A stretch of DNA of 64,000 nt from Candidatus Yanofskybacteria bacterium (GTDB taxonomy: Bacteria > Patescibacteriota > Minisyncoccia > 2-02-FULL-40-12 > GWA2-44-9): assembly GCA_003151795.1 (NCBI GenBank), contig PLYL01000024.1:4953-68952 (forward strand). Direction: 5' to 3'. The notes below the pieces were generated by a model. It was not told the DNA's origin, made no database searches, and worked only from the letters and a program-made list of their open reading frames with translations. Each line of letters begins with the position of its first letter. Within the stretch, counting starts at the first letter, position 1. Shown piece by piece: positions 18,624-41,219 of the stretch. Made by a program: the position numbers and the translations under genes.

Positions 18624-18629
18624 CAGTCA

Positions 18630-18706: not shown

Positions 18707-18725
18707 ATGCTCAACAAGTATTTAA

Positions 18726-21949: not shown

Positions 21950-21951
21950 AT

Positions 21952-24032: not shown

Positions 24033-27000
24033 ATCCTCTAAACGAAAACAACCTTACCGAGCAATCTCTCATCGAATGGCTGAAAAGTCAGGGCTATGAG
24101 CATGCCAGGGGTCCGGAGATAAATCCTGGTCAACCAAACGCTGAGCGGGAGGATTTTCGTGGCGTTGTATTGAAAAATCGTCTTCTTGGGGCAGTCCGTC
24201 GATTAAACCCACAACTTCCGGCCCAACAAGCAGAACAGGTCGTCGATGATATCGCCGGCTATCACAATGCGGATCTCGTTCTTGGTAACAAGGAAATGTT
24301 TACTCTTATCACTGAAGGGGTTAAAAAAACTTGGCGTGAGCAAGGTGAAGAGAAAACAGAAGTCGTGAAACTGATTGATTTTACAAATACAGATGCGGAT
24401 GAATTTTTAATTGTGAACCAATTCACGGTTCAAGGCATAGACGATGTATGCCGTCTCGATGGTGTCTTATTTGTGAATGGTCTTCCGTTGATAGTTCTTG
24501 AACTAAAGAGTCCTGTTCATGGGCAAGCGACTATCGGTCAGGCATATCGGGATATAGAATATTATAAAAAAGAGATTCCAAAAATTTTCTTATACAATCA
24601 AATCGTGTGTTCAAGTGATCTTACTGAGGCTAGACATGGAACGATATCTTCTTCATGGGAACGATATGGCACATGGAAAGGTATTGAATCAGAAAACGAC
24701 ACACCTAAAGATACGGCGGAGCTTGAAGTACTCGTTAAAGGTCTTTTTAATAAAGCCCGACTACTTGATGTCATGCAGAATTTCACAATATTTGAGGCTG
24801 ATGGCGATGGTGATGCAGTGACATACACAAAAAAGATGGCTATGTACCACCAGTACTATGGAGTGAATAAAACAATTCAGAGTACTATCCGGGCAGTATC
24901 AGGAGTTCAAGATCGAAAGATTGGTGTTTTTTGGCACACACAGGGTTCTGGAAAGTCGCTCTCAATGGTTTTTTATGTGAACAAAACAAAAAGAATTCCC
25001 GAACTTAAAAGCCCTGCTTACGTATTTCTAACTGATCGAGAAGATCTAGATGATCAATTGTTTAAGACCTTCAGTCGAACTGGATATGGCACACTCGCTA
25101 AAAAGGCTTCAAGTATAAGAGATTTACGTACAAGATTGTCACATCTTGGTGGTGAGCTTATCTTCACAACCATCCAAAAATTTCAGGAAGATCCCGATGC
25201 CCACGAAGCATTAACAACTCGTGATAATATTATCGTTCTTTCTGATGAAGCTCATCGTACTCAATACAGCAATTTGGCAGGAAATGTTCGCCTGGCATTA
25301 CCAAACGCAAGTTTCTTGGGAGTAACCGGAACTCCTATAGCCCTCAACAACAAGGATACTGTTCGGGTTTTTGGTGAGGTCGTGAGTTCGTACAAAATCA
25401 GCCAATCGGTCAAAGACAAATCAACGGTACCCATTTATTATGAAGGACGACTTGTACCACTCCATCTTGCTGATAAGTTTATCGATAGTAAATTCGATGC
25501 AGTTTTGGGTGAGGTTGTTCCTGATGACTACTCACGGATGCGTAAAGAATGGGCAGTTCTCGAAGAAGTTATTGGGGCACCAAGCCGTGTCGAAAAAATC
25601 GCTGAGGATATTGTGAACCATTTTAATAATAGGCCGATTGAGGGCAAGGCTTTGATTGTGACCATGAGTCGCCGGATTGCGGTTGCGATGTATGAAGCAA
25701 TACAAAAAATACCAGGAGCGCCAGAGTGCGCGGTAGTGATTTCAAATAGTGATGAATATGCATCGTTAATTCAAAAAGAAACAGATGTTAAAAAACTTGA
25801 GAAACGATTTAAAAAAGTAAACGATCCGCTTAAAATTGCCATCGTCTGCGACATGTGGCTAACCGGTTTTGATGTGCCGTGTTTGCATACACTATATCTT
25901 GATAAGCCACTTAAAAATCATGGGCTCATGCAAGCCATTGCTCGGGTAAATCGAGTGTATAAAGATAAGCCGGGTGGTTTAGTCGTCGATTATATTGGTG
26001 TCGCCGAGAATCTTAAAAAAGCCCTGGCCTGGTATGATTCTGATATCCAACATGATGCACTTGTCCCCATCGATGAAGTTGTTGAACAGATGCACACTAT
26101 ACATTCAGAAGTAACCAAATTTTTTGGCGAGGTTAAATTTTCAGCATGGAAACAAAAAAGAGGAGTTGAATTGGCAAATCTCATGCGAGCTGGAGTGAAT
26201 GCCGTTATTACCCAAAATGGCTTTTTATCAGACGAGAAAAAGATGAAGTATATAGGGATGGTTTCTAAACTTTCAAAATTACATGCCCTGGTCATGCCTG
26301 GAGAACAAGCAATGAACTTATTGTCTAATGTTCAGTTTTTCCAAGCTGTACGTGAGTTCATAAGAAAACAAACAGTGATACCTCATGCGATATTTCCAGA
26401 GGAAACAGAGAGTGCTATTCGTAGCTTAATGCACGATTCAATTCAAGCTGAAGAAATCGTCGATCTATTTAATGTTGAAGGTGAAGAAAGAAAAAGCATT
26501 TCTATTTTCGACGAAAAATTTGTTGCTGAAATTAAGAAATCACATTATCAAAATTTTGCGATTGATTCGATTCGCAAACTTCTTGATCGAGAGATACATG
26601 CTCGCATGCGCATTAATACAGCTCGTTATGAAACCATGCTCAATCTTTTAGAAGGACTTATTGAAAAATACGAAAACAATGTTATTAGTTCTGCTGAAAT
26701 CATAAAGCAGTTACTTGAAATTGCTGATGAAATTAAGAAACTAGATCAAGGAAGTAAAGATACGGGTCTTTCTTATGATGAGCTAGTTTTTTACGATACT
26801 TTGGCGAGTGATCCAGAACTCAAGAAAGCTGGCATTGATATTAAAAAGTTTGTAAAAGATCTCACGAAACGTATTCGTCGAGATCTTGCCATAGACTGGA
26901 CAAACAACGAAACTATAAAAGCCCGTATTCGTCAAAATGTACGGTTACTCTTGCTTCAAAAAGGATTTGTGGAACAAATTCAAACAGAGCGGCTGATAGA

Positions 27001-27052
27001 ATCTATATATCTGGAGACCGTGAGAGTGTACCGTGAGTATTTACCTGCATAA
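24029..27052 (+). CDS. hsdR: Type I restriction enzyme R subunit HsdR (SF2 helicase plus N-terminal nuclease)
   Basis: 1007 aa with a Walker A (TQGSGKS), a DEAH box (VLSDEAHRTQ), an N-terminal PD-(D/E)xK region, and 4-bp overlap with hsdS. Confidence 0.9.
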   Translation: MNPLNENNLTEQSLIEWLKSQGYEHARGPEINPGQPNAEREDFRGVVLKNRLLGAVRRLNPQLPAQQAEQVVDDIAGYHNADLVLGNKEMFTLITEGVKKTWREQGEEKTEVVKLIDFTNTDADEFLIVNQFTVQGIDDVCRLDGVLFVNGLPLIVLELKSPVHGQATIGQAYRDIEYYKKEIPKIFLYNQIVCSSDLTEARHGTISSSWERYGTWKGIESENDTPKDTAELEVLVKGLFNKARLLDVMQNFTIFEADGDGDAVTYTKKMAMYHQYYGVNKTIQSTIRAVSGVQDRKIGVFWHTQGSGKSLSMVFYVNKTKRIPELKSPAYVFLTDREDLDDQLFKTFSRTGYGTLAKKASSIRDLRTRLSHLGGELIFTTIQKFQEDPDAHEALTTRDNIIVLSDEAHRTQYSNLAGNVRLALPNASFLGVTGTPIALNNKDTVRVFGEVVSSYKISQSVKDKSTVPIYYEGRLVPLHLADKFIDSKFDAVLGEVVPDDYSRMRKEWAVLEEVIGAPSRVEKIAEDIVNHFNNRPIEGKALIVTMSRRIAVAMYEAIQKIPGAPECAVVISNSDEYASLIQKETDVKKLEKRFKKVNDPLKIAIVCDMWLTGFDVPCLHTLYLDKPLKNHGLMQAIARVNRVYKDKPGGLVVDYIGVAENLKKALAWYDSDIQHDALVPIDEVVEQMHTIHSEVTKFFGEVKFSAWKQKRGVELANLMRAGVNAVITQNGFLSDEKKMKYIGMVSKLSKLHALVMPGEQAMNLLSNVQFFQAVREFIRKQTVIPHAIFPEETESAIRSLMHDSIQAEEIVDLFNVEGEERKSISIFDEKFVAEIKKSHYQNFAIDSIRKLLDREIHARMRINTARYETMLNLLEGLIEKYENNVISSAEIIKQLLEIADEIKKLDQGSKDTGLSYDELVFYDTLASDPELKKAGIDIKKFVKDLTKRIRRDLAIDWTNNETIKARIRQNVRLLLLQKGFVEQIQTERLIESIYLETVRVYREYLPA

Positions 27053-29000
27053 AATTATGACTACTGCACAACAACTAACAGCTATCAACTTAAGATATGG
27101 AACCGTAGCAAAGTCTTTGAAGACCCTTGCTTTTAGTGACCTTTCTGCAAAGGCATTATATTTACTAGGAAAGCCTGCCCGGTTAGATGAGGTAAGTAAG
27201 TCGGTCGCTCAAATAATTGGCGTACGCTCCTTATCAAATGATTTAGTACTTAAAGGACTTCAGGAATTAAAGAATGACCGAAAGGCAATGGTATCGAAAG
27301 ATCTTTGGGAGCTTCTTGAACAGACAAGTAAGGATATCAAAAAACAGATTGAATCTTTGGAGACGTCTCTCTTGTCTGTATTGAAGAGGAATTTTCCGGC
27401 GGATATTGAATTAAATCTTCTAACCAACTGGTTTATTGATGTCATATCCGATTTCTTCATCTATAACGGAGATGAATGGGTTCAGTCTATATGTAAAGGA
27501 TCAAGTAATTTTACAAAATTAAAAACTTTTGATGAGCTTCTGGAACCATCCATCAAAAAACATAAACTAACCCTACATATTAATGAACTAAAAAATTCTT
27601 TTAGTGGTTTCCTGAATAGCTCTAACAAAGACGATCAGTTTTATATTGTGAATATTGGCTATGCAATGTTTTCAGCTAGATTGGTTGCAGCCGATGTTGG
27701 AGCAGACCCTATTGCTTTGGAGGAGCTTCAAAATGCTAGTTTCTTTTTAGACACGAACTTTTTCTATGCTTTACAATTAGAAAAGAATCGGCTTGCCACA
27801 TCACTAGAAGCACTAGGCGAAGCTCTCAAAGAGATTGGTGCTAAATTATTTTTTATTCACGAAACCGAAGAAGAATATAAGCGTGTTTGGTCTGGAAGGA
27901 GATTAGAAGTACTGAGACTACTTGATATCTATCCCAACGATGTGGTTTCTGCCGCTGATGATAGTTTTGTTTCTACGGCTCTAGCTCGTGGTTGTTTAAA
28001 TAAATCTGATTTCGAAGTATTCTTTGATTCAGTACAGCAATTACCTCAAAAAATGGTTGAGGGACTCCCTATTACTAAAATTGATGACAAGGAGGTAAAT
28101 AAAATTGTCCTAAAAGCAAAACAAGACGGAGGATTAAAAGATTTCGTTCAGAGATGGTCTCTTAAAATGAGGCCACTTTGGAATAGACATCCAAAATCTA
28201 ACGCTGCTTTAGGGCACGATGCTTCTTTGATTATGGTCGTTGAGAGTGAAAGACAAATCGAAAAGAAGACTTTTATTCTCACACTAGATCGAAGCTTGCA
28301 AGCCTGTTGCGCAGAAAGAGCAGGTAATCATAATCTTCCAGTAGCTATTTATCTTGAAGGACTTATACAAATCCTTGCAGCAAATAACGCTGGCCCCGGT
28401 ATTGATGCTTCAAATTTCGCACCATTACTAACGAGCATAATCCTAAAGAGGTGTATCCCTCCAGAGCAAATGTATAGTCTTCAAGACTTACACTGGTTAT
28501 ATGGAATCCAGAAAAATGTTGCAAAGTTTAAGCCAAGTAAAATTAAACAAATTGCTCTTGAAGTAACAAGAGCGCGTCTTTCTGGTAAGACCGCCACCGA
28601 CGATGCCCTTCAAAGGATTGTGAATCGTTTGTATCAGGAAGAAATACAGTCTACCTCCAGAGAGGTATCTGAGGCCATGGCTAGAGCGCAATCGGCCGAA
28701 CAGGACGCTCTTAGGGAAAAGACTTTGCGTAAACAAGCAGACTCTAAATTACAAATGTATGAAAGAAAAAATAATTTACGGATTGCAAAATTTAAACTCA
28801 TTAAAACTTTGGCTTGGCGCACTCCGGTTAGCTTGGCTATAGGGTACCTTGGCTTTTATTTAGCGTCTATATCAGTTAACCAAAGTAGCCCGTTGGACAT
28901 AGTGTTGGGACTCGTAGCTTTTTTGGGGGCTTCGTATGCTATCCTGTCAAAACCAATAAAAGCGTACATGGTTGTTCGTGGAGAAAATCGGTCCTCCTAG
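27033..29000 (+). CDS. Large hypothetical protein translationally coupled to hsdR; PIN-like motif plus a C-terminal coiled coil and two transmembrane helices
   Basis: Overlaps the hsdR stop by 20 bp. A central FFLDTNFF segment resembles the PIN-domain first strand and is followed by acidic positions. A C-terminal hydrophobic pair (LAIGYLGFYLASI...LGLVAFLGASYAIL) is present. No confident family assignment. Confidence 0.35.
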   Translation: MSIYLHKIMTTAQQLTAINLRYGTVAKSLKTLAFSDLSAKALYLLGKPARLDEVSKSVAQIIGVRSLSNDLVLKGLQELKNDRKAMVSKDLWELLEQTSKDIKKQIESLETSLLSVLKRNFPADIELNLLTNWFIDVISDFFIYNGDEWVQSICKGSSNFTKLKTFDELLEPSIKKHKLTLHINELKNSFSGFLNSSNKDDQFYIVNIGYAMFSARLVAADVGADPIALEELQNASFFLDTNFFYALQLEKNRLATSLEALGEALKEIGAKLFFIHETEEEYKRVWSGRRLEVLRLLDIYPNDVVSAADDSFVSTALARGCLNKSDFEVFFDSVQQLPQKMVEGLPITKIDDKEVNKIVLKAKQDGGLKDFVQRWSLKMRPLWNRHPKSNAALGHDASLIMVVESERQIEKKTFILTLDRSLQACCAERAGNHNLPVAIYLEGLIQILAANNAGPGIDASNFAPLLTSIILKRCIPPEQMYSLQDLHWLYGIQKNVAKFKPSKIKQIALEVTRARLSGKTATDDALQRIVNRLYQEEIQSTSREVSEAMARAQSAEQDALREKTLRKQADSKLQMYERKNNLRIAKFKLIKTLAWRTPVSLAIGYLGFYLASISVNQSSPLDIVLGLVAFLGASYAILSKPIKAYMVVRGENRSS

Positions 29001-29054: not shown

Positions 29055-29807
29055 ATGTCTAAATACTACAATCCCAATCGTAAGAGAAATATGTACGAAC
29101 CGAGCTCGAAGGAGCCGTTTCGGCTTAGTCGCTCAAAGATAGATTTATTTTTGAATTGCCCGCGGTGTTTCTATATGGATAGACGACTTGGGGTCGGACA
29201 GCCACCAGGATATCCGTTCAGTCTCAATTCTGCGGTAGATAAGCTTTTAAAGAAGGAGTTTGATATGCACCGAGCCAAAGGGACAGCCCATCCTCTGATG
29301 AAGGCTTATGGCCTTGAGGCAGTGCCTTTTGCACATGATAAAATTGACGAATGGCGGGACTCTTTGCGACGTGGTATTACATATCATGATGTAGTCACTA
29401 ATCTACTCATCACTGGCGGTGTAGACGATGTCTGGGTTGATCTACAGGGCAAGCTGATGATTGTAGACTATAAGGCAACTTCAAAAGAAGCCGAGGTCAC
29501 CCTAGATGCCGACTGGCAGATTGGCTATAAGCGTCAGATGGAAGTATACCAATGGCTATTCAGAAAGAACGGCTTTAAAGTTTCCAGTACCGGCTACTTT
29601 GTATATTGTAATGGGATAACAGACAAAAAAGCTTTTGATGCCAAACTGGAATTTGATGTTAAGGTTATTCCTTATACTGGCGATGATTCATGGGTGGAAG
29701 GCACTATTCTTGGAATTAAAAAATGCCTTGATGGTGCAATGCCAGACTCAAATCCAGAGTGTGATTTTTGCAGTTATCGAAAAGCGGTAAGCGAGGTAGA
29801 TAAATAA
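29055..29807 (+). CDS. Cas4-like PD-(D/E)xK nuclease with four-Cys cluster (no CRISPR context)
   Basis: N-terminal CPRC plus C-terminal CDFC (the Cas4/AddB-type 4-Cys arrangement) and a PD-(D/E)xK core (VDDVWVDL...IVDYK). Confidence 0.55.
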   Translation: MSKYYNPNRKRNMYEPSSKEPFRLSRSKIDLFLNCPRCFYMDRRLGVGQPPGYPFSLNSAVDKLLKKEFDMHRAKGTAHPLMKAYGLEAVPFAHDKIDEWRDSLRRGITYHDVVTNLLITGGVDDVWVDLQGKLMIVDYKATSKEAEVTLDADWQIGYKRQMEVYQWLFRKNGFKVSSTGYFVYCNGITDKKAFDAKLEFDVKVIPYTGDDSWVEGTILGIKKCLDGAMPDSNPECDFCSYRKAVSEVDK

Positions 29808-29814
29808 TAAATTT

Positions 29815-30186
29815 ATGGCAAACAAATATGGCATACCAAATAAGGTGGAAAAAAAGATACGCAAAAGAGACATGCCGTATTGTGTTTATTGTCATAAGAG
29901 AATGACTATCCCTAAAAGAGGTGGCTCAAGGAGGAACTGGGCAACAATAGAACATCTTAATGAAAGAGGTCCAGATTTTTGGGATGAAAAGTGGAATGGA
30001 ATAAGACTGAACGAAAACAATTTGGCAATTTGTTGTTTTAGCTGTAATGCTAGCAGAGGTCAGCTAAACTTGTATAAATGGTTCACATCTTCTTATTGCA
30101 TGGATAGAAAGGTAAAGATAGGTAAAAATACCGTCGCATCTCCAGTAAAAAAGTTTCTTCGAAAATATATTTATAGTAAGCAATGA
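29815..30186 (+). CDS. HNH endonuclease
   Basis: CxxC...H...N...CxxC arrangement (CVYCHK ... IEHLNERG ... CCFSCNASRG); 123 aa. Confidence 0.6.
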   Translation: MANKYGIPNKVEKKIRKRDMPYCVYCHKRMTIPKRGGSRRNWATIEHLNERGPDFWDEKWNGIRLNENNLAICCFSCNASRGQLNLYKWFTSSYCMDRKVKIGKNTVASPVKKFLRKYIYSKQ

Positions 30187-31400
30187 TTTATAAACATCAA
30201 TATTTCAAGCTAGATACGGAGAAGAAAAAGCTCTTTGACCACCACGGAGAAGAGACATTTATTTCCGGCACCTCTAAGGTTTTTAAGTTACTGGAATATT
30301 TATGCGAAAGTTATCCTGCTAGCGTTACCATAACCAACATAAACGATCATGTCGATCCATTACAAAGCGATGTAGAGATCAGAGAGGATAATGTTCGTAA
30401 TATGCGTAATGAGATAAGAAAAGCACTCCGCCAAGATTTAATTAAATATGAAAATCACGTCTATTCTATAATCGGTCGGGTAGAGAAATTTGAAAAAGAG
30501 CCAGAGAATAAAGACCTCCCAGTTCAGGGGAAAACAGAAATTATTTCTAGACGAATCAACAAGCGCGTATTATTAGTAACCGTTGCCATCGTCTTACTAG
30601 TTATTGGTGTATTAATTTTTATTCAATATAAAAAGGGGGCTTTTTCTCTGAAGCCAGTGAATGACATGGTTTTAATTCCGGCTGGCAAGTTTCTAATGGG
30701 AAGCACCGATGCGCAGATAACTCAAGGATACAATTTATGCCAAGAACAAAACCAGTGTTCCCTGCAAGACTACCAATCAGAATATCCTCAACATGAAGTA
30801 TCGTTACCTAATTTTTATATTGATCGGAAGGAAGTATCAAATGCTGACTATGCTCTTTTTATGAAAGCGAAAAAAGTAGCCGCGCCTCAATATTGGAATG
30901 ATTCAGACCTTAATAGTGCCAATCAACCAGTAGTTGGAGTTAATTGGAATGATGCTACAAATTATTGTCAGTGGCTCAGTGAACGATTACCGACTGAAGC
31001 CGAATGGGAGAAAACGGCCAGAGGAACTGATGGCAGGATATGGCCATGGGGAAACACTTGGGATGGCTCAAAACTTAATCATGGTAAGGGTGGAATGCCT
31101 GGATTGGATGCTAGTGATGGCTATTTATATACCGCTCCTGTGGGGGCTGATTTGGGCGTAAGCCCCTACGGAGTCCTAGATATGGCCGGCAATGTTGATG
31201 AATGGGTTTTTGATACTTTTAATCCATATCCGGGTAACGACAAATATGCCAACTCTCAGTATAATAAAGGTCTTAAGATTGTCCGAGGTGGGTCATATGA
31301 GGAAGATTCAAGTATCCAAAGAAGTGCCAGTAGAACAGTATGGCAACCTAGTAATAATGACGAAGCCACTGGTTTTCGTTGTGCGAAAGACGCGAAGTAA
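30183..31400 (+). CDS. Membrane-anchored CadC/OmpR-type winged-helix regulator fused to an FGE-sulfatase (SUMF1/EgtB-like) domain
   Basis: N-terminal trans_reg_C-like wHTH pattern, one transmembrane helix (LLVTVAIVLLVIGVLIFI), and a C-terminal FGE-sulfatase domain (NVDEWVFD, RGGSYEED, GFRCAKD). Confidence 0.6.
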   Translation: MIYKHQYFKLDTEKKKLFDHHGEETFISGTSKVFKLLEYLCESYPASVTITNINDHVDPLQSDVEIREDNVRNMRNEIRKALRQDLIKYENHVYSIIGRVEKFEKEPENKDLPVQGKTEIISRRINKRVLLVTVAIVLLVIGVLIFIQYKKGAFSLKPVNDMVLIPAGKFLMGSTDAQITQGYNLCQEQNQCSLQDYQSEYPQHEVSLPNFYIDRKEVSNADYALFMKAKKVAAPQYWNDSDLNSANQPVVGVNWNDATNYCQWLSERLPTEAEWEKTARGTDGRIWPWGNTWDGSKLNHGKGGMPGLDASDGYLYTAPVGADLGVSPYGVLDMAGNVDEWVFDTFNPYPGNDKYANSQYNKGLKIVRGGSYEEDSSIQRSASRTVWQPSNNDEATGFRCAKDAK

Positions 31401-31421: not shown

Positions 31422-31456
31422 CCGCCGAACTTCGGGTGAAGTTCGGCGGTTTTGTT
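31422..31456 (+). terminator. Intrinsic terminator
   Basis: 12-bp perfect stem (ccgccgaacttc / gaagttcggcgg) with a 4-nt loop, followed by ttttgtt. Confidence 0.65.
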
Positions 31457-31533: not shown

Positions 31534-31797
31534 ATGATAATAATCATAGCTTACAAATTAAATAACCCCAGCAAAGACTATATGCCCCTTTATACCTCAA
31601 TTAAGTCGCTTGCTTCTAACTGGTGGCGCTCATTCGACTCGCTTTGGTTAATTCATACCAATCTTAGCCCGATCGAAATAAAGGAATCGCTAGTATCTAA
31701 CCTAGATTCAAAAGACGAGATTATAGTGGCGCGAGTGGATGGAGAAATCACCGGCTACATATCTGCTGAATTACATGATTGGCTTAAAAATAATTAA
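31534..31797 (+). CDS. Hypothetical small protein
   Basis: 87-aa ORF; weak support. Confidence 0.25.
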   Translation: MIIIIAYKLNNPSKDYMPLYTSIKSLASNWWRSFDSLWLIHTNLSPIEIKESLVSNLDSKDEIIVARVDGEITGYISAELHDWLKNN

Positions 31798-32056
31798 TTT
31801 AAATCAAATGCCAGCCAGAATAATAAAATCGTTGCCAATGCCGGAAAGAGGATATCATCACAGAGAACATAGGTCTCGGAAAAGTAAAAAAGGACAGAAT
31901 ACTAAGCGTAAAAGAGAGGACCGACTTAAAAAGCTTATGGCTAAAGAACTACGGGATAAGGAATTTCTAAAAAGATTTCGACGGAAAAGGGCAATGTTAG
32001 TAAATAACTATACCAACAGCGAGATTCTTACAACAAATATAAATCAACTAATATGA
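31739..32056 (+). CDS. Small highly basic (Lys/Arg-rich) protein; start uncertain
   Basis: The frame overlaps the GHKL gene start by 4 bp. The sequence HHREHRSRKSKKGQNTKRKREDRLKK suggests nucleic-acid binding. Confidence 0.3.
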   Translation: MEKSPATYLLNYMIGLKIINLNQMPARIIKSLPMPERGYHHREHRSRKSKKGQNTKRKREDRLKKLMAKELRDKEFLKRFRRKRAMLVNNYTNSEILTTNINQLI

Positions 32057-33555
32057 CAAAAATAAAAGAACAATTTCATCCTGGTATAAAATATGCGCTA
32101 TCTTCTAATTTTAGAAATTGGAAAGAAGCAATACTCGAACTTCTTGATAACGCTGTCTCCGATCGTATTATGGGAGTCCCTCTTCAAGTTTCAGTTCTTA
32201 TTGGTCCCGAATTAATTGAAATTGAGAATTTAGGAGGAGTAGCGATGAATCCGGAGAAGATGGGCCAAATGTTTTCATGGGGCGAGCAGAAGGATCGACA
32301 GGCATGGGATATCGGTGCCTATGGGCAAGGGGGTAAGGCAGCCATGACTTACCTAGGAAATGAGATGGAAATCATTTCTTCTCCTCGGTTGGATGACGTT
32401 GAGTATTCTATCAAGGACGCCAACTTGCATGATATCTCCCAACTTAAGGAATATGACGTCCAAGAACGTAATGCTAAAAATTACGACCAAGGCTATGTCA
32501 GAATTTCATTACGTCAATTACGTCGTAGGGTTAAGGGAGAAGAAGTTGAAGATATTGTCTGTGAGTATTATAGACCACTTATAGAGAGAAAAGAAATCCA
32601 AGTTACAGTCAATGGAAAAGATATTAAGCTTAAGAATTTTCCGTTAGACCCGGAATTTAATCCTCAGTCATTTGAAATCAAAACCGTGCGTGATGATGGG
32701 AGAAAGATAGAAGTTAGGGGCTGGATCGGTCGATTGCAATCACGAAGCGGATTACGTGGTGGTTTTAGGGTATATAAACTTGGTCGGTTAATTACATCAC
32801 AGGAATACTTTGGCAAACCAGATGCTAACTACAAACAGTCGTTGAATCTTCTTTTTGGTGAAGTCCATCTTGATTATGTAACCGTAACAACAAATAAAAC
32901 CAGCTTTGATCAGGGTTCGATAGGATGGCAGTCGGCACTTACTGCTATTAGTCCTATTCTTGATCCTTATATCAACGATCTCCTTGGCCGTGATATCAAA
33001 GAACCTACAGACGAAGAAAAAGATAAGGTCGAACAAACACGTCAGATATTAGCTGAGATTATGAAACAACGCGACATGCAATTAAAGGGTATAAGCGGGG
33101 CTCCAGATTCAACTGGTCAGAAACCACCAGTACGCAATGAGGATCCTACTCCTCGGGTCCATAATAATCATACGGACCGTAAGAATGAACCACGAACACC
33201 GCCCCCGGCTGGTGCGATTGGAAAACGTCGCCGTCTTAATGAATTTATTGACATGGAACCACGAGCAATTGATGAGAATGTTCGAAGCGTCGTAGAAGTA
33301 ATCAATGATGGTAAGAAAAAGTTAGTCATCAATAATCAATTTCCTGGATATAAAGCTAATAAGGATAACGATAAGGCCAACGGTTTCTATTTACTCGAGA
33401 CTGCCGCATTGCAGCTCTGTAAAATTGATGGCGATAATAAATTAACTGCCAGTGAATTTATTATTCAGTTCGATGAATTGTTAGCATATTGTTGTGAAAA
33501 CTTTGAATTAGCAAAGGATGCTATTAAAAAGAGAAATGCCACTAGAAAGAAGTAA
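32053..33555 (+). CDS. GHKL-superfamily ATPase (HATPase_c_3 / MORC-Hsp90-like Bergerat fold) protein
   Basis: N-box ELLDNAVSD, G1-like ENLGGVAMNPEKM, and G2 box IGAYGQGGKAAMTYLG. 500 aa with a low-complexity basic linker and a C-terminal domain of unknown function. Confidence 0.55.
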   Translation: MTKIKEQFHPGIKYALSSNFRNWKEAILELLDNAVSDRIMGVPLQVSVLIGPELIEIENLGGVAMNPEKMGQMFSWGEQKDRQAWDIGAYGQGGKAAMTYLGNEMEIISSPRLDDVEYSIKDANLHDISQLKEYDVQERNAKNYDQGYVRISLRQLRRRVKGEEVEDIVCEYYRPLIERKEIQVTVNGKDIKLKNFPLDPEFNPQSFEIKTVRDDGRKIEVRGWIGRLQSRSGLRGGFRVYKLGRLITSQEYFGKPDANYKQSLNLLFGEVHLDYVTVTTNKTSFDQGSIGWQSALTAISPILDPYINDLLGRDIKEPTDEEKDKVEQTRQILAEIMKQRDMQLKGISGAPDSTGQKPPVRNEDPTPRVHNNHTDRKNEPRTPPPAGAIGKRRRLNEFIDMEPRAIDENVRSVVEVINDGKKKLVINNQFPGYKANKDNDKANGFYLLETAALQLCKIDGDNKLTASEFIIQFDELLAYCCENFELAKDAIKKRNATRKK

Positions 33556-34723
33556 ATTTATTGACCAATATTATATCAGTAATAAAAACATGAAAATAAC
33601 CTCAGACGATATTAAAAATCCAATGGACTTCACAAAGATTAAGAAGTTCAAAAAACCATTAAAGATTTTGGCCATAATAGCCGGCGTGCTTGTTGGCTTT
33701 TATATATCCTTGATAATTATCGGCCTTACCGCCTCCGGCGTCAGCGATTTTTGGAGTAGCATCTATTGGTCGTCATATTTCTGCGGACCGAAGAATATCT
33801 CCGATGCCGCAAACGGTGTTGTGAAAATAACCATGAGTGATGGTAGTAGCGGAAGCGGTTTCTGGATAGCTCAAGATCTAGTTCTTACTAATAACCATGT
33901 CATAAGTTTTGAGAATGGTATTCAGGTTATTGATGATGAAGGTACTACGTATGATGCAGTAGCGGTTCAGACAGACACAATAAAGGACTTGGCTATTTTA
34001 AAGATATCCGCGCTCGATGTGCCCGATCATGAACATTACATTATCCCAATGCGCTCTCGTTGGCCGGTTCTTGCTGAAAACGTCTATACGCTCGGTTTTC
34101 CCGGAGATAGCAAAACCATAGTCACAACAAAAGGTATTGTATCTGCTCTGACCCACACTCCCATTGAAGATACAAAAATAATTCAAACCGACGCCGCTAT
34201 AAATCCCGGTAATTCAGGTGGGCCGTTGGTTGATGTATGCGGTCGAATGGTTGGTATTAATTCTTCAACTGCCACGGGTTCTGAAAATGTCGGATATTCA
34301 ATTGAGACGGTCCGTATCAGTGATACGATCGGTAATATGATTTCTCTAGGCGAGAATATCACCAGTGCCCGGTTGGCTAGCGGTCAGACTGGCGATACAG
34401 CTGAAATCGTCGCGAAATACTACGACGCTTTAAACCAAGGAAATTTTGAAACCGCCTATGATTTCTATTCCCCAACCCTTAAATCTAGAACTCCCTTTAA
34501 TGGTTGGAAGAAAAATTACGACAACAGTTCTATTATTAAAGTTAAGTCTGCCGTGGAAACATCACCAACTCAGGTCGAAGTGGTTGTTGTGACTATTGAT
34601 AACCCGGACGGAGATTCTACCACGAAAGAGTTTAAGGGTACCTGGTCGTTGGTTAATGAAAATGGGGTCTTAAAATTGAACCAATCAAATATCAGCGAAA
34701 TCCCGGTTGAGAATTTTAATTAA
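33518..34723 (+). CDS. Membrane-anchored trypsin-like (S1, HtrA/DegP-type without PDZ) serine protease with an NTF2-like C-terminal domain
   Basis: N-terminal transmembrane anchor, catalytic Ser motif GNSGGPLVD, a His region LTNNHVI, and an Asp near DLAILK. Overlaps the GHKL gene by 38 bp. Confidence 0.7.
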   Translation: MLLKREMPLERSKFIDQYYISNKNMKITSDDIKNPMDFTKIKKFKKPLKILAIIAGVLVGFYISLIIIGLTASGVSDFWSSIYWSSYFCGPKNISDAANGVVKITMSDGSSGSGFWIAQDLVLTNNHVISFENGIQVIDDEGTTYDAVAVQTDTIKDLAILKISALDVPDHEHYIIPMRSRWPVLAENVYTLGFPGDSKTIVTTKGIVSALTHTPIEDTKIIQTDAAINPGNSGGPLVDVCGRMVGINSSTATGSENVGYSIETVRISDTIGNMISLGENITSARLASGQTGDTAEIVAKYYDALNQGNFETAYDFYSPTLKSRTPFNGWKKNYDNSSIIKVKSAVETSPTQVEVVVVTIDNPDGDSTTKEFKGTWSLVNENGVLKLNQSNISEIPVENFN

Positions 34724-34919
34724 TCTGGACCCGGGGTATAATAGTATAATGTTTATTTTTCTTATCGGTTTATTCTGCTTCCTGCTGGTTATAGGATTTT
34801 TTGCCACGAAAGGTCGGTCTCCTTTGTCTTTTGCTGTTATGGGCATGGTCGCCCTGGCGGCTTTGGCTTTCGTAGTATTTATTGGAATGATAATTTATGT
34901 CCTCCTCTCTGCTCATTAA
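34707..34919 (+). CDS. Small two-transmembrane membrane protein
   Basis: 70 aa and almost entirely hydrophobic; overlaps the protease stop. Confidence 0.35.
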   Translation: MRILINLDPGYNSIMFIFLIGLFCFLLVIGFFATKGRSPLSFAVMGMVALAALAFVVFIGMIIYVLLSAH

Positions 34920-35068: not shown

Positions 35069-35139
35069 GCCTTTGTAGCTCATCGATAGAGCACTCCTCT
35101 GAAAAGGGAGAGAAGAAGGTTCAACTCCTTCCAAAGGCA
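35069..35139 (+). tRNA. tRNA-Phe(GAA), no encoded CCA
   Basis: Acceptor GCCTTTG/CAAAGGC, D-arm GCTC..GAGC, anticodon loop CTGAAAA, T-arm GAAGG-TTCAACT-CCTTC, and A73. Confidence 0.75.
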
Positions 35140-35142
35140 CAC

Positions 35143-35215
35143 GCCCTCGTAGCTTAATGGATAAAGTACCTCTGTTCTAATGAGGAAGATGTGGGTTCAA
35201 GTCCTGCCGAGGGCA
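35143..35215 (+). tRNA. tRNA-Arg(TCT) (slightly irregular; possibly degenerate)
   Basis: Acceptor GCCCTCG/CGAGGGC, anticodon loop GTTCTAA, and a T-loop TTCAAGT. It has a U-U at the 31-39 pair and two wobbles in the T stem. Confidence 0.55.
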
Positions 35216-35225
35216 CAAAAAGATT

Positions 35226-35663
35226 TCAAATCTCCAAGATCGAAGACTCATCCTGTTTCTGCCATTTATCAAAAGGCGGCGCTACCTTGCAACTAAGTTT
35301 TCTATCTTTCAGTGTCATATCCATCAGCATAGCTGTAACCAGTCCTCGTTTCTCCTCTGTATTAGCCAGACGGAGCGCTACTGCGGGCATGCCCATTAAA
35401 TCTACAATATGTTCTTCTCTGCTTTTCTCTGGTTGCGGCGGCTTTGTAATGTCATAGCCGAGGGCTATGAGGACTTCAAATTTCTTTACTAATAGTTCAG
35501 GGTTTCCTTCTGCAAGACTGCGAGTTTCCTTATACACCCGATCGTATATATGAGATACCGTGGTCATATAGTTCTTGAGCCTCAATTCTGCCTCAAAGAA
35601 CTCCCGATCGGACATATCGGGCATAAGCTCTCGCAACGACTTTTGTGGAGGTTGGTCTTTCAT
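35226..35663 (-). CDS. Hypothetical protein
   Basis: 145-aa ORF at the start of the phage-like block. Confidence 0.35.
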   Translation of the reverse strand: MKDQPPQKSLRELMPDMSDREFFEAELRLKNYMTTVSHIYDRVYKETRSLAEGNPELLVKKFEVLIALGYDITKPPQPEKSREEHIVDLMGMPAVALRLANTEEKRGLVTAMLMDMTLKDRKLSCKVAPPFDKWQKQDESSILEI

Positions 35664-35991
35664 GCCCCTGTTTTAGCAAATTGGATATTTTTGTCCATAG
35701 TATCCATTTCTAGAACTCTCAGAATGTCGCTGTCGGTAACTCAGACTTCGCAAGGCCTTCAACTTAAGTTAGAGTGGACGCCAAGGTCGATAAATGGTAC
35801 AGTTTCCTTACAATTAACCGTTACCTAACCCCATCAATATCCTTGCTGGGCATGGTACAAAAACCCCGATGAAGACACTGAACCCCGCGTTCAGCAACTC
35901 TTCATCGGGTCATACCGGGAAACTGGTATGGGGCCGCAAGGCCTAGCTAATGCGGGGTTTTGTGTTTTCGCAAATCCTCGCTATATGAAAA

Positions 35992-36900
35992 ATGGAACAA
36001 GCAAAAAATTGGTGGAGTCGTTATTGGGTACCGGTGGTATTTTTTGGCACAATCATATTATTTATCATCGGTATTGCTGAAAATTCGGGGAACTCATCCA
36101 GTAGTAATATACCCGTTGCCGTCACCCCGCCGTCAGTATGTTCAGAATCTGAATCCAACGTTTTACAGCAAGCCAAGGCAATAGATTTCAAACAGCTTAA
36201 TAAAGACCCAGGTAGTTTTAGTGGACAAGTTACAAAATTTACTGGTCAAGTGGTACAGGTTCAAGAAAATGGTCAGATAGGTGTCATGCGGTTGGCCGTT
36301 ACCAAAGAATCATATGGTTGGAGCCCGAGCGATATTATTTGGGTTGATTATTCTGGTCACAGTGATGCAGTACAAGACGATGTTGTTACGGTAATTGGTC
36401 CTATGACCGGGTCAAAGACTTATACTTCGCAAGCTAATTATCAGATCACCATTCCCAGCATGACCGGTTGCTATATTGACACCCAGAATGGTAAGGCAAC
36501 CACTACTCCAGTAGTAACTCAAAAAAGCAGTTCAAAAAACCAATCTGTTCCAGCTCCGGTATCAGCCTCAGTTCCGACTCCAACTCCAGTACCCGCACCT
36601 CCGGCGACATGGCACACGGTAACGAGTTTTGTAACAGATGTTCAAACTAAGACACCGCCATTCACTATGAGAGGTCAAGAATGGAGAATTACCTATAGTT
36701 GTACATCAACCCAAAGCGTTAATGGATTTTATGGATATGTCGATTCAGTCGCTACTGGATATGGAGATTCTTTTGCAACAGATGTCACCTGTCCGGCTAG
36801 TAATACTTCCTATTCATATGCCCAAACTCCGGGTCAATACTATTTTGACCTTGAACCAGTAGCCGCCTCGGTTACGGTAACTATTGAAGATCTATATTAA
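35992..36900 (+). CDS. Secreted or membrane-anchored protein with Thr/Pro/Ser-rich linker
   Basis: N-terminal transmembrane or signal anchor and a TTTPVVTQKSSSKNQSVPAPVSASVPTPTPVPAPP linker. Confidence 0.45.
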   Translation: MEQAKNWWSRYWVPVVFFGTIILFIIGIAENSGNSSSSNIPVAVTPPSVCSESESNVLQQAKAIDFKQLNKDPGSFSGQVTKFTGQVVQVQENGQIGVMRLAVTKESYGWSPSDIIWVDYSGHSDAVQDDVVTVIGPMTGSKTYTSQANYQITIPSMTGCYIDTQNGKATTTPVVTQKSSSKNQSVPAPVSASVPTPTPVPAPPATWHTVTSFVTDVQTKTPPFTMRGQEWRITYSCTSTQSVNGFYGYVDSVATGYGDSFATDVTCPASNTSYSYAQTPGQYYFDLEPVAASVTVTIEDLY

Positions 36901-36950
36901 AAAAATAAGATTCGAGATGAAATCTATTTTCTAAGTCAATTCTGAATCTT

Positions 36951-38717
36951 TCACCATCTGCCGCCACTCCCACCGCCTCGCTTATATGGCGCCATCATTT
37001 GACTGAAGTTAGACCGCTCGTATTCACTTTCCAACTGCTGGCCCAAATCGGCTTCTTTCTCGTTTTTTGGTCCCGAGGCCAAAGGGGTATATGTCTTGGA
37101 TGGCACGATTATACGGTTAGCTACATTGTCCCGCCCTTCAGAGAAGGCAAACCAGAGGGCCATAAGACTGTCACCGGTATGCCCATCCGGATATGCCCTC
37201 ATCTCATTCACTAGCTTAGTGATTAATTGTCTCGTTCTCATATCATTGCTATTCGGTAAAACAAGCTTGCCTTGGGAGAGCAAGACGGCCAAGCTATTCA
37301 CTCCGATGTCAGGGTCGTTCTTCTCACCGCCGGTCGTATAGCTGGTAACCGAAATACCCATATCGTCCAGGTCACGGCACATCATTTCCTGGTAACCGAC
37401 AGACTCCACACGGATGCCAATCGGTTTGACGGTCTCATCGTGTTTCAGGACGCGTTCTCGTACCTCATTGGGTAGAAACTTACCGCGCTCGATATTACGG
37501 ATGACATAATCTCCAGGGTTGATCTCACCATTACCAGTCCGTACTCGATCGAGACTGAGAATAACGGTGTCATCGGCCCAGGCCTTTTGAGAGATGGCTA
37601 AGTCTATGCCAGTAACGGTGTATTCACATTCATACTCTTTGCGTGGTTCATCTTGCAACATCAGATCCTTGCCTTTTTGAAGCGCCTTTTCGATTTCACT
37701 TTCCAAAAATTTCTGATTCGGCCGGATTGAGGGGTCGCATTGATACATACGAGCGAATGAGTACGGATTGCCGACTCGCTTCAAATATAAGTCTTGATAC
37801 GAGAACATTTCCGGCCACAAAACTTCGACGCCTTCATCCATTTCCTTCTTGTGTCCCGTATAAAACGCCATCGCTTGTACACTTTTTTCCTCTGGTGTCA
37901 GTGTCTCGTCAAGATGGATGCCGGCCCATTGTTCCCAAAGATCCTGCCGACTGGCTTCACGCGTAATCGCCGATAGGCGCTTGCGAACGTCAAACTGGGG
38001 ATCTTTAAGCAGATTACTGATCAAATCATCCATGTGCCACGTGTTACCGAGGTATATCAACTTGCCACCGGGTACGAGTACCGGCATCAGGGTCGTATAT
38101 ACCCAATCCTTGATTTTTTGCCGCTGTTCCTCGGTGGTCGAGTTTTCCTGATTCACTAAATCGTCCATGACGATGATGTCAGCCCGGCGTGATAAGATGG
38201 AGCCGAACAGCCCGACGGCATTAATGGTCGGGTCTTTGAGGGCAAAGTTATCACGCTCAATGACGATTGAATCTCGAGCCCAATTCTCTTCGCGTCGCTG
38301 ATACCGGCGAAGTCTGGGCATCACGCCTTTACCGGTTGGATCAATAGCCTTGGCCCAGACTTGGTATTTTTTATTGCGCTCGATGTGGCTGATCGTTTCC
38401 GACAAAAATCTTTGGGCCATCTCGGCAGTGCCGGAGACCAAGAGGATGCGGACATTATGGTTTTTGGCAATCTCCCATAATGGATAGGCCACAGAGAGAT
38501 GGGTAGACTTGCCATGGCCGCGCGGCATGGCGATGCAGAGCTTTTTATTAATCTTGTTTGATAAATAATCGTCCAGCTCGTTGTGAAACGGAGCGTTTTC
38601 TAGCCCGATAACTTCCGAAGTAAAAATTCGGAAGTTATCGGCTACGAGTTGCAAAAACTCGGCTAACTTTTTGATGTCTTTAGGGTTGCTCATGTTCGTT
38701 TGACGTGTCCGGTTCAA
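36951..38717 (-). CDS. terL: Phage terminase large subunit (ATPase plus nuclease)
   Basis: Walker A (MPRGHGKST), Walker B (DIIVMDD), and a C-terminal RNaseH-like nuclease region; 588 aa. Confidence 0.8.
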   Translation of the reverse strand: MNRTRQTNMSNPKDIKKLAEFLQLVADNFRIFTSEVIGLENAPFHNELDDYLSNKINKKLCIAMPRGHGKSTHLSVAYPLWEIAKNHNVRILLVSGTAEMAQRFLSETISHIERNKKYQVWAKAIDPTGKGVMPRLRRYQRREENWARDSIVIERDNFALKDPTINAVGLFGSILSRRADIIVMDDLVNQENSTTEEQRQKIKDWVYTTLMPVLVPGGKLIYLGNTWHMDDLISNLLKDPQFDVRKRLSAITREASRQDLWEQWAGIHLDETLTPEEKSVQAMAFYTGHKKEMDEGVEVLWPEMFSYQDLYLKRVGNPYSFARMYQCDPSIRPNQKFLESEIEKALQKGKDLMLQDEPRKEYECEYTVTGIDLAISQKAWADDTVILSLDRVRTGNGEINPGDYVIRNIERGKFLPNEVRERVLKHDETVKPIGIRVESVGYQEMMCRDLDDMGISVTSYTTGGEKNDPDIGVNSLAVLLSQGKLVLPNSNDMRTRQLITKLVNEMRAYPDGHTGDSLMALWFAFSEGRDNVANRIIVPSKTYTPLASGPKNEKEADLGQQLESEYERSNFSQMMAPYKRGGGSGGRW

Positions 38718-39093
38718 GCAGTTTTTCCGTGTCTGGCTTCAATTTCCCAAAGAGTTCAACATAAAGGTTATTGTCCTCATCTTGAGCAATGGTCAGCGCG
38801 GACTGGAAAACCTTTTGCTTGTAATCCGAATGTTTATTTTTCAGCCAAAAAATTATGGCCGTGAGGTTGCCGTTTTTGATTGCGGTCAACAACTGCGATT
38901 CCGAGATGTCATTTACTAGTGCCTCTCCTTCAGTCAATGCTTGGTCGGCCGCTTTTCGGAATTCGACATCCTCTGACTTCCATCGGTAAAAGGTCATGCG
39001 GGATATCTCGGCCTTCTGACACGCCGCTTCAATAATCGGCGATTTTCGTAGCTGGTCTAAAATAATCTGCTTGATTCGGTCTACTTTTTTCAT
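38680..39093 (-). CDS. HTH protein, likely terminase small subunit
   Basis: 137 aa directly upstream of and overlapping terL, with an N-terminal HTH (EAACQKAEISRMTFYRWK). Confidence 0.5.
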   Translation of the reverse strand: MKKVDRIKQIILDQLRKSPIIEAACQKAEISRMTFYRWKSEDVEFRKAADQALTEGEALVNDISESQLLTAIKNGNLTAIIFWLKNKHSDYKQKVFQSALTIAQDEDNNLYVELFGKLKPDTEKLLEPDTSNEHEQP

Positions 39094-39872
39094 AGTTGTT
39101 TGGCCTTAAGGCCGGTTAGCTCTTCCCAGCGGCGAATCGCGGTCAGGCAATATTCCAAATCAAGTTCAACCGCACAACAGCGGCGTTTCGTTTGCTCACA
39201 AGCCAAGAGGGCGGTGCCGCTACCAAGGAAGCCGTCAAATACGACCTCGCTGATGTTCGTACTATTAAGTATGAGTCGCCGAATCAGTCCGATCGGTTTA
39301 GTGGTTGGGTGGAGCTTGCTTTTGGCGGGTTTGGGATAGAACAAAACCGACTTGTCTTTTGACCGTCGGAATTGATGGACGCCGAACCAGCCGTAGAGAA
39401 TCAGCTCGTGCATCGGTGCGTAATCGAGACGACCGATGACGGCTTGGGACTTCACCCACACGATTAGTTGAGCAACCTTGAATCCGGCGTCAATCATGCC
39501 GTCCCGCAACGACCAAATCATTTTGTCAGCGTTGAACACGTAGGTGGCGTTGTGACGGGAAAGATGAGGTGCAATCGCTTCAAGCCATTGGCGATTGAAT
39601 GTCCGATATTCATCATCAGATTGAATCTGGTCGTTAGCGATGATTTTGTCTTTCACCAACGGTTGGAACCCGCGCTTACTTTCCACGACACCGATGCCGT
39701 AGGGAATGTCGCAACAAATAAGATTTATTTTCTCCTGACCGATCAATCGTGACAGCAGTTCTTTGTCTCTCGCATCGCCATACGCCAGGCGATGTTCCCC
39801 AAGTTGCCAGATGGTGCCAAGATTAATTGATTTTTCGGGCTTTGATGCCGGTGGCTTTTTCATATCTCGCAA
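39090..39872 (-). CDS. DNA methyltransferase (N6-adenine/N4-cytosine, PF01555-type)
   Basis: DPPY-type catalytic motif (DIPYG) and an AdoMet-binding segment (FDGFLGSGT). Confidence 0.8.
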   Translation of the reverse strand: MRDMKKPPASKPEKSINLGTIWQLGEHRLAYGDARDKELLSRLIGQEKINLICCDIPYGIGVVESKRGFQPLVKDKIIANDQIQSDDEYRTFNRQWLEAIAPHLSRHNATYVFNADKMIWSLRDGMIDAGFKVAQLIVWVKSQAVIGRLDYAPMHELILYGWFGVHQFRRSKDKSVLFYPKPAKSKLHPTTKPIGLIRRLILNSTNISEVVFDGFLGSGTALLACEQTKRRCCAVELDLEYCLTAIRRWEELTGLKAKQL

Positions 39873-41103
39873 TTATTAGGTCTATAAATATTGGTTCAAT
39901 CTCAGCCATGAAACAGACTCGTTTCATGGCATCGGCGGCCAGAAGCGTCGACCCGCTCCCGCCGAACAAATCCAAAATGGTGCCTCCCGGTCTGGTGCAT
40001 CGTTTAATCGGTCGCTCATGCAAATTCAAGGGCTTCTGCGTCGGGTGCTCGTACTCTTGTCCTGGCACTCTTTTCGCAAGCCACACGTCGATTAAATCCA
40101 TTACATCATCGAGGAGTTTGTTGCCCGATGGCCCCAGCTCTTTATTGAGCACTTCGCCGAAATTAAGCGACACCGGCGACAGATACGGCTTGCCACGAGT
40201 GGCGTAAACAACCGGCTCGTAACACTTCCCAAAAGCGACGGTCGGCACGGGATTGGCGGGGCCCTTAATCCAAAGACAGACGCGTCGATTATCCAAGCCA
40301 AGTTCTGAAAATAAACTTTGAATCAAGCCGATATATTTTTGGTCAGACCAATAAAATATGTGAGCGTCCGGCTTCGTCACCGAGAGAGCGTTTTCCATGG
40401 AACGTTTCAGAAATGTCCGATATTCGTCATCCGGTTTCAAATCTTGCACCGTGCCACCATATGATGCCTTGCCTCCAACCCCGGCGTTGTAGTCCAAAGA
40501 AATATTGTAGATCGGGTCGCAGTAGACCATATCAATCTTGGCATCGCCGACGAGTTTTTTAACGGTTGCCAGGTCGAGTGAGTCCGAGCAAATTAATCGG
40601 TGTGGCCCAAGCGCATAGAGATCCCCGAGCTTAGCTTTTGGTTTCTTAATCTTTTTCAGCTCGGCTTCTTCGTCCCACCCATCATTGGAAACTTCAAGCG
40701 AATCAGCAAAGATGACTGATAAGTCATTATCGTCGAACCCCGATACGAGCATGGTTTCAATATCAAAGTATTCCGAAAGCATGTCGTAGTTCCAATCCGC
40801 ATGTATACGATTCGAGGCCAGCAAATAGCTTTTATATTCCTCCTCCGTTAACGGCCGATTCGGGACGCGACAGTCGATCAGGTCGTTGCCGTTGCCCAAC
40901 AATTGAAGGGCGGCCACTCTTTGGTGACCGGCCAATATTTTCCCGTCCTGGGTCACCGCAGGTATTTCCACGAGGCCGTAACGTTTGAGCGACTGGAGGA
41001 GGTCGTTGCGTTGTTTCTCGGATAATGTTCTGGGATTTTGTTTGAACGGGAGCAGATCTTTGACCCTGCGCTGTTCCGTGTGCCATTGAAGCTGTTTTGC
41101 CAT
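39823..41103 (-). CDS. ParB-like nuclease domain fused to a DNA methyltransferase
   Basis: N-terminal ParB/Srx-like domain (LLPFKQNPR...GHQRVAA), then a DPPY-type motif (CDPIYN) and an AdoMet motif (DLFGGSGST). Confidence 0.8.
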   Translation of the reverse strand: MAKQLQWHTEQRRVKDLLPFKQNPRTLSEKQRNDLLQSLKRYGLVEIPAVTQDGKILAGHQRVAALQLLGNGNDLIDCRVPNRPLTEEEYKSYLLASNRIHADWNYDMLSEYFDIETMLVSGFDDNDLSVIFADSLEVSNDGWDEEAELKKIKKPKAKLGDLYALGPHRLICSDSLDLATVKKLVGDAKIDMVYCDPIYNISLDYNAGVGGKASYGGTVQDLKPDDEYRTFLKRSMENALSVTKPDAHIFYWSDQKYIGLIQSLFSELGLDNRRVCLWIKGPANPVPTVAFGKCYEPVVYATRGKPYLSPVSLNFGEVLNKELGPSGNKLLDDVMDLIDVWLAKRVPGQEYEHPTQKPLNLHERPIKRCTRPGGTILDLFGGSGSTLLAADAMKRVCFMAEIEPIFIDLIIARYEKATGIKARKIN

Positions 41104-41219
41104 ATGTTTTTATTAATGAGGGCCGTGTTTTAACCCTTCCCTCACTCTTTAGGGTTCGAGAATGGCAAAACGGGACATCAAAAAGCCCCGAGCGGGGCTT
41201 TAAACTTTGAGTCTAAAGT

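Follow-up and report, generated by a model that had tools for sequence, protein, structure and literature searches.

Enzymes that combine a GHKL ATPase domain with an S5 domain (MutL, topoisomerase, Hsp90, MORC) dimerise when ATP binds and hold DNA or client proteins in a clamp or a loop, and the prokaryotic MORCs are thought to be ancestral to the MORC chromatin silencers of eukaryotes. According to the comparative genomics of Iyer et al. (2008, PMC2292703), prokaryotic MORCs occur in restriction-modification (R-M) contexts, ca. 70% of their operons including a superfamily II helicase and/or an R-M nuclease or methylase, and are separated from other GHKL proteins by the motif GhXhhpXXRhl; DNA looping within R-M systems was proposed for them. 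In the literature that we searched, prokaryotic MORCs are known almost solely from this 2008 paper, and no experimental study was found. As for proteases, the nuclease-protease pairs used in defence consist of a cytosolic protease fused to a sensor enzyme and of an upstream pro-nuclease of the metallo-beta-lactamase (MBL) fold (Tuck et al. 2025, PMC12799240). Here, we analyse a MORC gene from a stretch of 64,000 nucleotides of contig PLYL01000024.1 (Candidatus Yanofskybacteria bacterium), hereafter the window, in which this gene is preceded by that of a small basic protein and followed by those of a trypsin-like serine protease and of a tiny membrane protein. A sequence-only reading had proposed that these four genes form a single, uncharacterised defence module. 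On balance, we favour a mosaic of two independent units within an acquired island, i.e., a MORC core and a separate protease cargo, over one four-gene system. The genes concerned are the following (positions are those of the window):

31534..31797, + strand: orf87, an acidic protein of 87 amino acids (aa; isoelectric point, pI, 5.2), absent from the list of the sequence-only reading
31808..32056, + strand: basic small protein, 82 aa from its likely start; the corresponding open reading frame (ORF) of 105 aa begins at 31739
32053..33555, + strand: MORC-family GHKL + S5 ATPase, 500 aa, with profile, fold and motif matches
33518..34723, + strand: membrane-anchored S1C serine protease, 401 aa, with alternative starts at 33536 and 33591 and a Trypsin_2 match at 2.4e-28
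34707..34919, + strand: hydrophobic small ORF, 70 aa from TTG or 56 aa from ATG 34750, with two predicted transmembrane (TM) helices; putative gene

The four ORFs first reported are present at 31739-32056 (105 aa), 32053-33555 (500 aa), 33518-34723 (401 aa) and 34707-34919 (70 aa), and so are the motifs quoted for them, namely the N-box ELLDNAVSD and the G2 box IGAYGQGGKAAMTYLG of the ATPase and the GNSGGP of the protease. Judging from 133 homologues of the ATPase (E down to 1e-143) and from the Trypsin_2 match of the protease, these two are genuine genes and not chance ORFs. With a hidden Markov model (HMM) search and a structure prediction now run, the proposed assignment of the ATPase to the MORC class of GHKL proteins is borne out by profile, by fold and by a MORC-specific S5 motif. 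Its match to Pfam HATPase_c_3 (PF13589; 22.2 bits, E 1.6e-4) is below the gathering threshold of 25, which reflects divergence and not a missing fold, since many homologues have a precomputed PF13589 match. In the PDB, a profile of 29 family members matched MORC4 and MORC3 (1.3e-10). Similarly, when the AlphaFold (AF2) model of the ATPase (predicted local distance difference test, pLDDT, 82.6) was submitted to Foldseek, the best matches were MORC3, MORC4 and MORC2 (MORC3 at 8e-16), followed by TRAP1/Hsp90 and SMCHD1, the structural alignment with MORCs extending over ca. 390 columns and spanning both the GHKL and the S5 domains. Residues E29, D32, N33, G61, G62, M65, G93-G94-K95, N281 and K282 are invariant across the 29 members; among these are two N-box residues, the catalytic Glu and the Asn that binds Mg, along with the glycines of G1/G2 and the S5 lysine. 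Within S5, the invariant NKT (N281-K282) aligns with the NKQDF motif of MORCs, and the stretch G237-F-R-V-Y-K-L-G-R245-L-I, of which G237, R245, L246 and I247 are invariant, aligns with GIMMYH(K/N)NRLI of MORC3/4. The 500-aa protein is a true prokaryotic MORC, in that it has all three structural marks of membership (GHKL domain, S5 lysine and MORC motif). Because its catalytic motifs are intact, it would be expected to be active. Beyond residue 346, a disordered linker rich in Pro and basic residues (ca. 347-396) leads to a family-specific C-terminal alpha/beta domain, for which Pfam gave no match.

Compared to the prokaryotic MORCs of Iyer et al. (PMC2292703), this protein is alike in its intact GHKL ATP motifs, its S5 Lys, its GFRVYKLGRLI motif and its sporadic, horizontally transferred distribution; its island also has type I R-M, HNH and restriction endonuclease (RE)-fold nuclease genes, and Dcm/Vsr genes lie by some of its relatives. 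Its differences are an operon devoid of any nuclease or superfamily II helicase, the upstream coupling to a small basic protein and a family-specific C-terminus. Eukaryotic MORC2/3/4 (PDB 5ix2, 7k7t, 9cdj) provide the best profile and fold matches, with GHKL and S5 domains that align, including NK(T/Q)DF, but the identity is ca. 15% and the bacterial protein, 500 aa long, has no CW zinc finger or coiled coil and ends in another C-terminus. While the MORC family itself was already known, what is new here is a compact variant free of helicase and nuclease, in which a solo 500-aa MORC comes with a tiny basic partner.

This family is small: out of 1.84 billion, 263 representatives reach E<=1e-30, and the best 150 of these 263 are ca. 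460-565 aa long when complete and show no fusions. It ranges mainly over Patescibacteria, Chloroflexota and Dormibacterota, with some members in Actinomycetota. Gene neighbourhoods were compared for 84 loci with a MORC homologue (80 genome loci and several metagenome loci); in high-GC loci from Chloroflexota, greedy ORF calls gave spurious antisense ORFs, so Pfam/HMM matches were used there instead. Most close MORC relatives are paired with a basic protein of 74 aa, without a Pfam family, which lies immediately upstream of MORC in 12 loci, nine of them from among the closest relatives (39-48% identity) and three from more distant ones (ca. 33%). In the window, the basic protein (pI 11.4, 30% Lys + Arg over 82 aa) is translationally coupled to MORC, its stop overlapping the MORC start (ATGA). 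Its own start is most likely at 31808, because the corresponding Met is the first residue of its sole homologue (L011:2030-2266, 45% identity); the longer 105-aa ORF overlaps, in its 5' part, the end of orf87. Homology of this protein to the usual 74-aa partner was considered and rejected (hhalign probability 0.7%).

The sequence-only reading described the four ORFs as chained by overlapping stops and starts. This is firm for the basic protein and the ATPase, as just seen, whereas the other two overlaps depend on the start that is chosen. For the protease, ATG codons at 33518, 33536 and 33591 are all candidates, and the last of them, 35 nt past the ATPase stop, agrees with the N-termini of the orthologues. 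As to the small TM ORF, its overlap with the protease requires a TTG start, ATG 34750 being the more plausible one. Moreover, the association of the ATPase with the protease does not recur elsewhere. No trypsin/HtrA-like ORF was found within up to 8 kb of MORC in any of the 84 loci, whether by blastp with the window protease, with an HMM built from 120 HtrA-type sequences or in the Pfam census, and no MORC homologue was found near the protease orthologues (0/7 contexts). The ATPase and protease homologues thus fail to co-occur in either direction, which means that their pairing is not conserved. The sequence-only reading had itself named such an absence as refuting its proposal, and the four genes as one defence module are not supported.

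To follow the protease and the MORC gene separately, the four features upstream of orf87 are needed:

29055..29807, + strand: gene of a Cas4-like PD-(D/E)XK nuclease, 250 aa (PDDEXK_1 at 4e-13; PADLOC Cas4 models at 1.6e-8)
29815..30186, + strand: gene of an HNH nuclease, 123 aa (PADLOC HNH/PtuB-like models at 7e-5 to 2e-3)
30183..31400, + strand: membrane-spanning FGE protein, 405 aa (FGE-sulfatase at 1.9e-55)
31422..31449, + strand: strong intrinsic-terminator-like hairpin with a stem of 12 bp (8 GC pairs) followed by a T tract, which closes the upstream operon after the FGE gene

The protease is, as first described, a membrane-anchored S1 enzyme with a GNSGGP motif, according to its Trypsin_2 match, its triad and its TM topology. 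It consists of a Lys-rich basic cytoplasmic tail, one TM helix (ca. residues 46-76) and a trypsin-like domain, in which the triad (H127/D157/S233) and two Cys are invariant among orthologues. Given the Lys-rich tail ahead of a single TM helix (N-in), the catalytic domain is predicted to lie outside the cytoplasm, a location that the two invariant Cys fit, and an outward protease domain would be a poor fit as the effector of a cytosolic DNA ATPase. The C-terminal 110 residues are NTF2-like (DUF4829/NTF2-like at 1e-3, sub-threshold) and stand in the place of a PDZ domain, for which Pfam gave no match. With HtrA/DegP/DegS, the protein shares the trypsin-like domain, the His-Asp-Ser triad, the GNSGGP motif and a location outside the cytoplasm, but it differs from them by the missing PDZ, the N-terminal TM anchor, the C-terminal NTF2-like domain, its location on an island and the small number of its orthologues (only ca. 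8 clusters). Its best NCBIfam HtrA/DegP score is 112.6 bits vs. a cut-off of 416.2, and it is below every HtrA/DegP/DegS cut-off. An ordinary housekeeping HtrA was rejected on the absence of PDZ, the few orthologue clusters and an island-like GC content. The protease also resembles the trypsin-like proteases of defence systems (Hachiman, AVAST, Lamassu, DRT), with matches to RT-Protease_XI, Avs1b and HamA in PADLOC and a defence island around it; unlike those of the pairs of Tuck et al., it is stand-alone, membrane-anchored and outward-facing, and no metallo-beta-lactamase match was obtained in the region.

The protease has a synteny of its own. In L097, a 112-aa HNH protein that is 52.5% identical (E 1e-37) to the HNH nuclease of the window is encoded two genes upstream of the protease (49% identity), and in L088 it is a homologue of the Cas4-like nuclease (29% identity, E 3e-25; PDDEXK_1) that is found two genes upstream. 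A serine recombinase remnant precedes the protease in L099, and helicases are directly upstream of it in L085 and L091. The protease thus belongs to a recurring mobile-element backbone of Patescibacteria, made of Cas4-like PD-(D/E)XK, HNH, serine recombinase and helicases. We designate the S1C protease as unit B, possibly with the small TM ORF included. The latter has no family matches and no homologue, and the census revealed no counterpart downstream of the protease orthologues. Separately, a 70-aa ORF at 56898-57110, 22 kb from the protease of the window, resembles (31-41%) small ORFs that lie by two of the orthologues (L097 2453-2659 and L099 422-607).

Upstream of the protease, the MORC gene is the last member of a block, hereafter unit A, that has the same order in the window and in a Saccharibacteria locus (L011): winged helix-TM-FGE protein, terminator, orf87, basic protein, MORC. 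L011 is the same as L092-L096, i.e., one Saccharibacteria population from Hainich groundwater. The identities between the two copies are 49% for FGE (L011:301-1548), 43% for orf87, 45% for the basic protein and 41% for MORC, and such similar values across four proteins indicate that unit A was inherited together as a block. The FGE gene of the Saccharibacteria copy follows rpoB-rpoC and also has a hairpin at the equivalent site past it (1564-1590). The FGE protein of the window begins with an OmpR/ToxR-type winged helix (Trans_reg_C at 1.2e-3, 19.3 bits, below the cut-off), continues with one TM helix (ca. residues 124-155) and ends with an FGE-sulfatase domain predicted to face outward. Scans of viral contigs with the MORC alignment and with the FGE alignment returned no relatives.

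As for orf87, the MORC operon probably starts with this gene. Its family has one other member (L011) among 5.8 billion proteins searched with a profile, and a metagenome scan with orf87 recovered the Hainich groundwater population of L011 only. A ferredoxin fold of the Cas2/VapD type (beta-alpha-beta-beta-alpha-beta) is predicted from its best AF2 model (pLDDT 90; the four other models are at 63-70), for which Foldseek placed Cas2 proteins on top (E 1.6e-3 to 1e-2, TM-score 0.57-0.68), VapD and GhoS being resembled as well. The likeness to Cas2/VapD is thus one of predicted fold and size, with a single confident model out of five and, as a difference, no catalytic Asp: strand 1 ends with AYKL in the window and with TYNL in L011, where Cas2 has this residue. 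An identity as Cas2 was rejected, the E-values being marginal and a match at the sequence level lacking, so that the likeness concerns the fold only; among the nearby genes that were annotated, no cas1, no other cas gene and no CRISPR array were seen. Functionally, orf87 may act as a regulator, or as an antitoxin-like counterpart to the basic protein.

Unit A sits exactly between the HNH gene, whose stop overlaps the start of the FGE gene (ATGA), and the protease gene, and the simplest reading of this position is a mosaic. Unit B would be co-transcribed with unit A in the window only, because unit A lies there between HNH and the protease. Seen in this way, the pairing of ATPase and protease is a product of island mosaicism, and recognising it as such removes a false lead. 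Several observations nevertheless weigh against a mosaic with a MORC core engaged in defence or in conflict between mobile elements. First, MORC and the protease are probably co-transcribed in the window, since no terminator was found between the two genes and their ORFs possibly overlap. Second, the synteny of unit A is known from two lineages only, and the contexts of the protease orthologues are mostly short contigs. Third, the block of L011 has the gene of a membrane-anchored serine protease of family S49 (SppA-like) between the basic gene and MORC, so that a protease could be a functional, swappable part of the block. In both assemblies inspected at the sequence level, a frameshift near 2975-2990 splits this S49 gene (2272-3193; also in L092-L096), the remainder of the domain continuing in a different frame, and three other assemblies have the gene called with the same truncated length (223-239 aa). 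Either the gene is a pseudogene or an assembly error recurs. That each of the two known copies of the block has an outward-facing protease, with no relation between the two enzymes, could be a coincidence, or could mean that a protease works together with the outward-facing FGE protein. Fourth, PADLOC v2, which covers GHKL defence systems (e.g., Mza), returned no family at E<=0.01 for the 500-aa ATPase. Finally, most MORC relatives are found among housekeeping or toxin-antitoxin genes rather than among R-M genes. When the 256 neighbours at positions +/-1 and +/-2 (80 loci) were classified with Pfam, the commonest families were PIN (11), Fic/Doc (4) and AbiEii (2), no conserved enzymatic neighbour was found and R-M genes occurred in a few loci only; Dcm/Vsr/REase (restriction endonuclease) genes flank the relatives of L001 and L015, and a methyltransferase gene flanks that of L011.

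The island that harbours both units corresponds to a mosaic insertion from ca. 18.5 to 45.7 kb of the window, which contains tRNA genes, recombinases, the R-M and nuclease genes, the four genes and terminase genes. Its low GC content (35-43% in the island genes vs. 51-53% in the flanking core genes dnaG, rpoD and murA-like) marks it as horizontally acquired. Beyond the genes already given, it includes:

18538-20051, bounding or interrupting the island on one side: tRNA-Ser and a large serine recombinase
20168-27052, upstream type I R-M set: hsdM, Ymh, hsdS, hsdR
35069-43927, likewise on the other side: tRNA-Phe/tRNA-Arg, both terminase subunits (small and large), a pair of ParB/methyltransferase genes and another large serine recombinase, the second of the island

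The description of the surroundings as a defence-type island is confirmed by the type I R-M, PD-(D/E)XK and HNH genes directly upstream, to which two serine recombinases and terminase genes can be added. No capsid or tail genes were seen in the island, which gives it the look of a prophage remnant or of a composite element, and a search for att-like direct repeats marking its ends (18-46.5 kb) yielded only short matches at chance level. The type I R-M operon (within 20168-29000) has two peculiarities: HsdM carries an N-terminal HTH_17 fusion, and hsdM and hsdS are separated by a gene of the Hypoth_Ymh family. In addition, a protein of 655 aa, whose gene overlaps the end of hsdR, has C-terminal hydrophobic segments and matches no family.

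From a functional perspective, the conserved core of unit A is a stand-alone MORC together with the small basic partner to which it is translationally coupled. By analogy with MORC, MutL and Hsp90-type GHKL enzymes, the ATPase may form dimers upon binding ATP and serve as a clamp or a loop-former on DNA, with the basic partner supplying or modulating nucleic-acid binding. As neither a nuclease nor a helicase is part of this MORC family, a restriction-like outcome would need either unlinked or neighbouring nucleases, or the compaction or silencing of incoming DNA. The island setting makes a role of the MORC module in defence or in mobile-element conflict plausible; with most relatives in non-R-M neighbourhoods, a defence role is drawn by analogy alone. 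A module of two genes, basic protein and MORC, would lend itself readily to biochemical and genetic study and could reveal the effect of a minimal MORC on DNA.

The alternative that best survives, though we consider it rather unlikely, is that the MORC module works for the mobile element (chromatin-like silencing, compaction, segregation) and not for the defence of the host, or that orf87 and the basic protein make up an addiction or toxin-antitoxin-like pair that carries MORC along as cargo. The module is indeed borne by an island, with recombinases and terminase genes nearby, and its relatives often adjoin toxin genes (PIN, Fic/Doc, AbiEii) and not R-M genes. The two small proteins are moreover complementary in charge (pI 5.2 vs. 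11.4), the fold of orf87 resembles VapD and GhoS besides Cas2, and eukaryotic MORCs compact and silence DNA (PDB titles; established knowledge). However, many MORC relatives stand single among housekeeping genes with no obvious mobile element, the toxicity is hypothetical and a family of two members means that orf87 is not a general part of the module.

More doubtful still is a cassette leading from the envelope to DNA, in which the outward FGE domain of the ToxR-like regulator would sense a cue from outside, a swappable but necessary protease (S1 or S49) would process the FGE protein or a partner as in regulated proteolysis, and orf87, the basic protein and MORC would act on DNA. Were it true, it would be an undescribed conflict system of Patescibacteria that couples an event at the envelope (phage adsorption, cell contact) to a MORC-driven action on DNA. 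Both copies of the block do have an outward-facing, membrane-anchored serine protease, with unrelated folds, and the FGE protein combines a TM helix with a winged helix. Yet this winged-helix assignment is below threshold, the two proteases occupy different positions, and all assemblies examined at the sequence level have a frameshift in the S49 gene. Furthermore, the S1 protease has elsewhere its own synteny with HNH and PD-(D/E)XK genes, a terminator splits the FGE gene from the remaining ones, and the block is known from two lineages only.

Last, a single anti-phage system made of the basic protein, the GHKL ATPase, the protease and the TM protein, in which the ATPase would sense infection and the protease would be the effector, is very unlikely: the four ORFs are on the same strand, chained without any terminator between them, within a defence-type island, and trypsin-like effectors or activators are known (PMC12799240), with PADLOC matches to RT-Protease_XI (1e-17), Avs1b and HamA, but co-occurrence is absent from both the 84 MORC loci and the 7 protease contexts, the protease is extracytoplasmic whereas MORC is cytosolic, the known nuclease-protease pairs have a sensor-fused protease and an MBL nuclease, neither of which is present here, and the TM ORF is not conserved.

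Returning to the small partners of the two-unit mosaic, a second pair of a small protein and a GHKL ATPase is found in the window, at 59620-62207, with the stop of the partner overlapping the start of a 785-aa GHKL protein. The N-terminus of the latter is a divergent GHKL domain (HATPase_c_3 at 6e-4, sub-threshold) with the motifs EKIINSVDA, DFGEGQS and GKFGMGG; a profile comparison of this protein with the MORC family was not significant. Sequence searches of the PDB with orf87, with the N-terminus of the FGE protein and with this 785-aa protein gave nothing significant. In contrast to the basic protein of the MORC operon, the 77-aa partner of this second pair (59620-59853) belongs to the 74-aa partner family (hmmsearch 3e-38), from which it follows that one partner family serves two different GHKL ATPases. 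The genes downstream of the 785-aa protein encode an unknown protein of 199 aa and a Zeta toxin (62364-63767).

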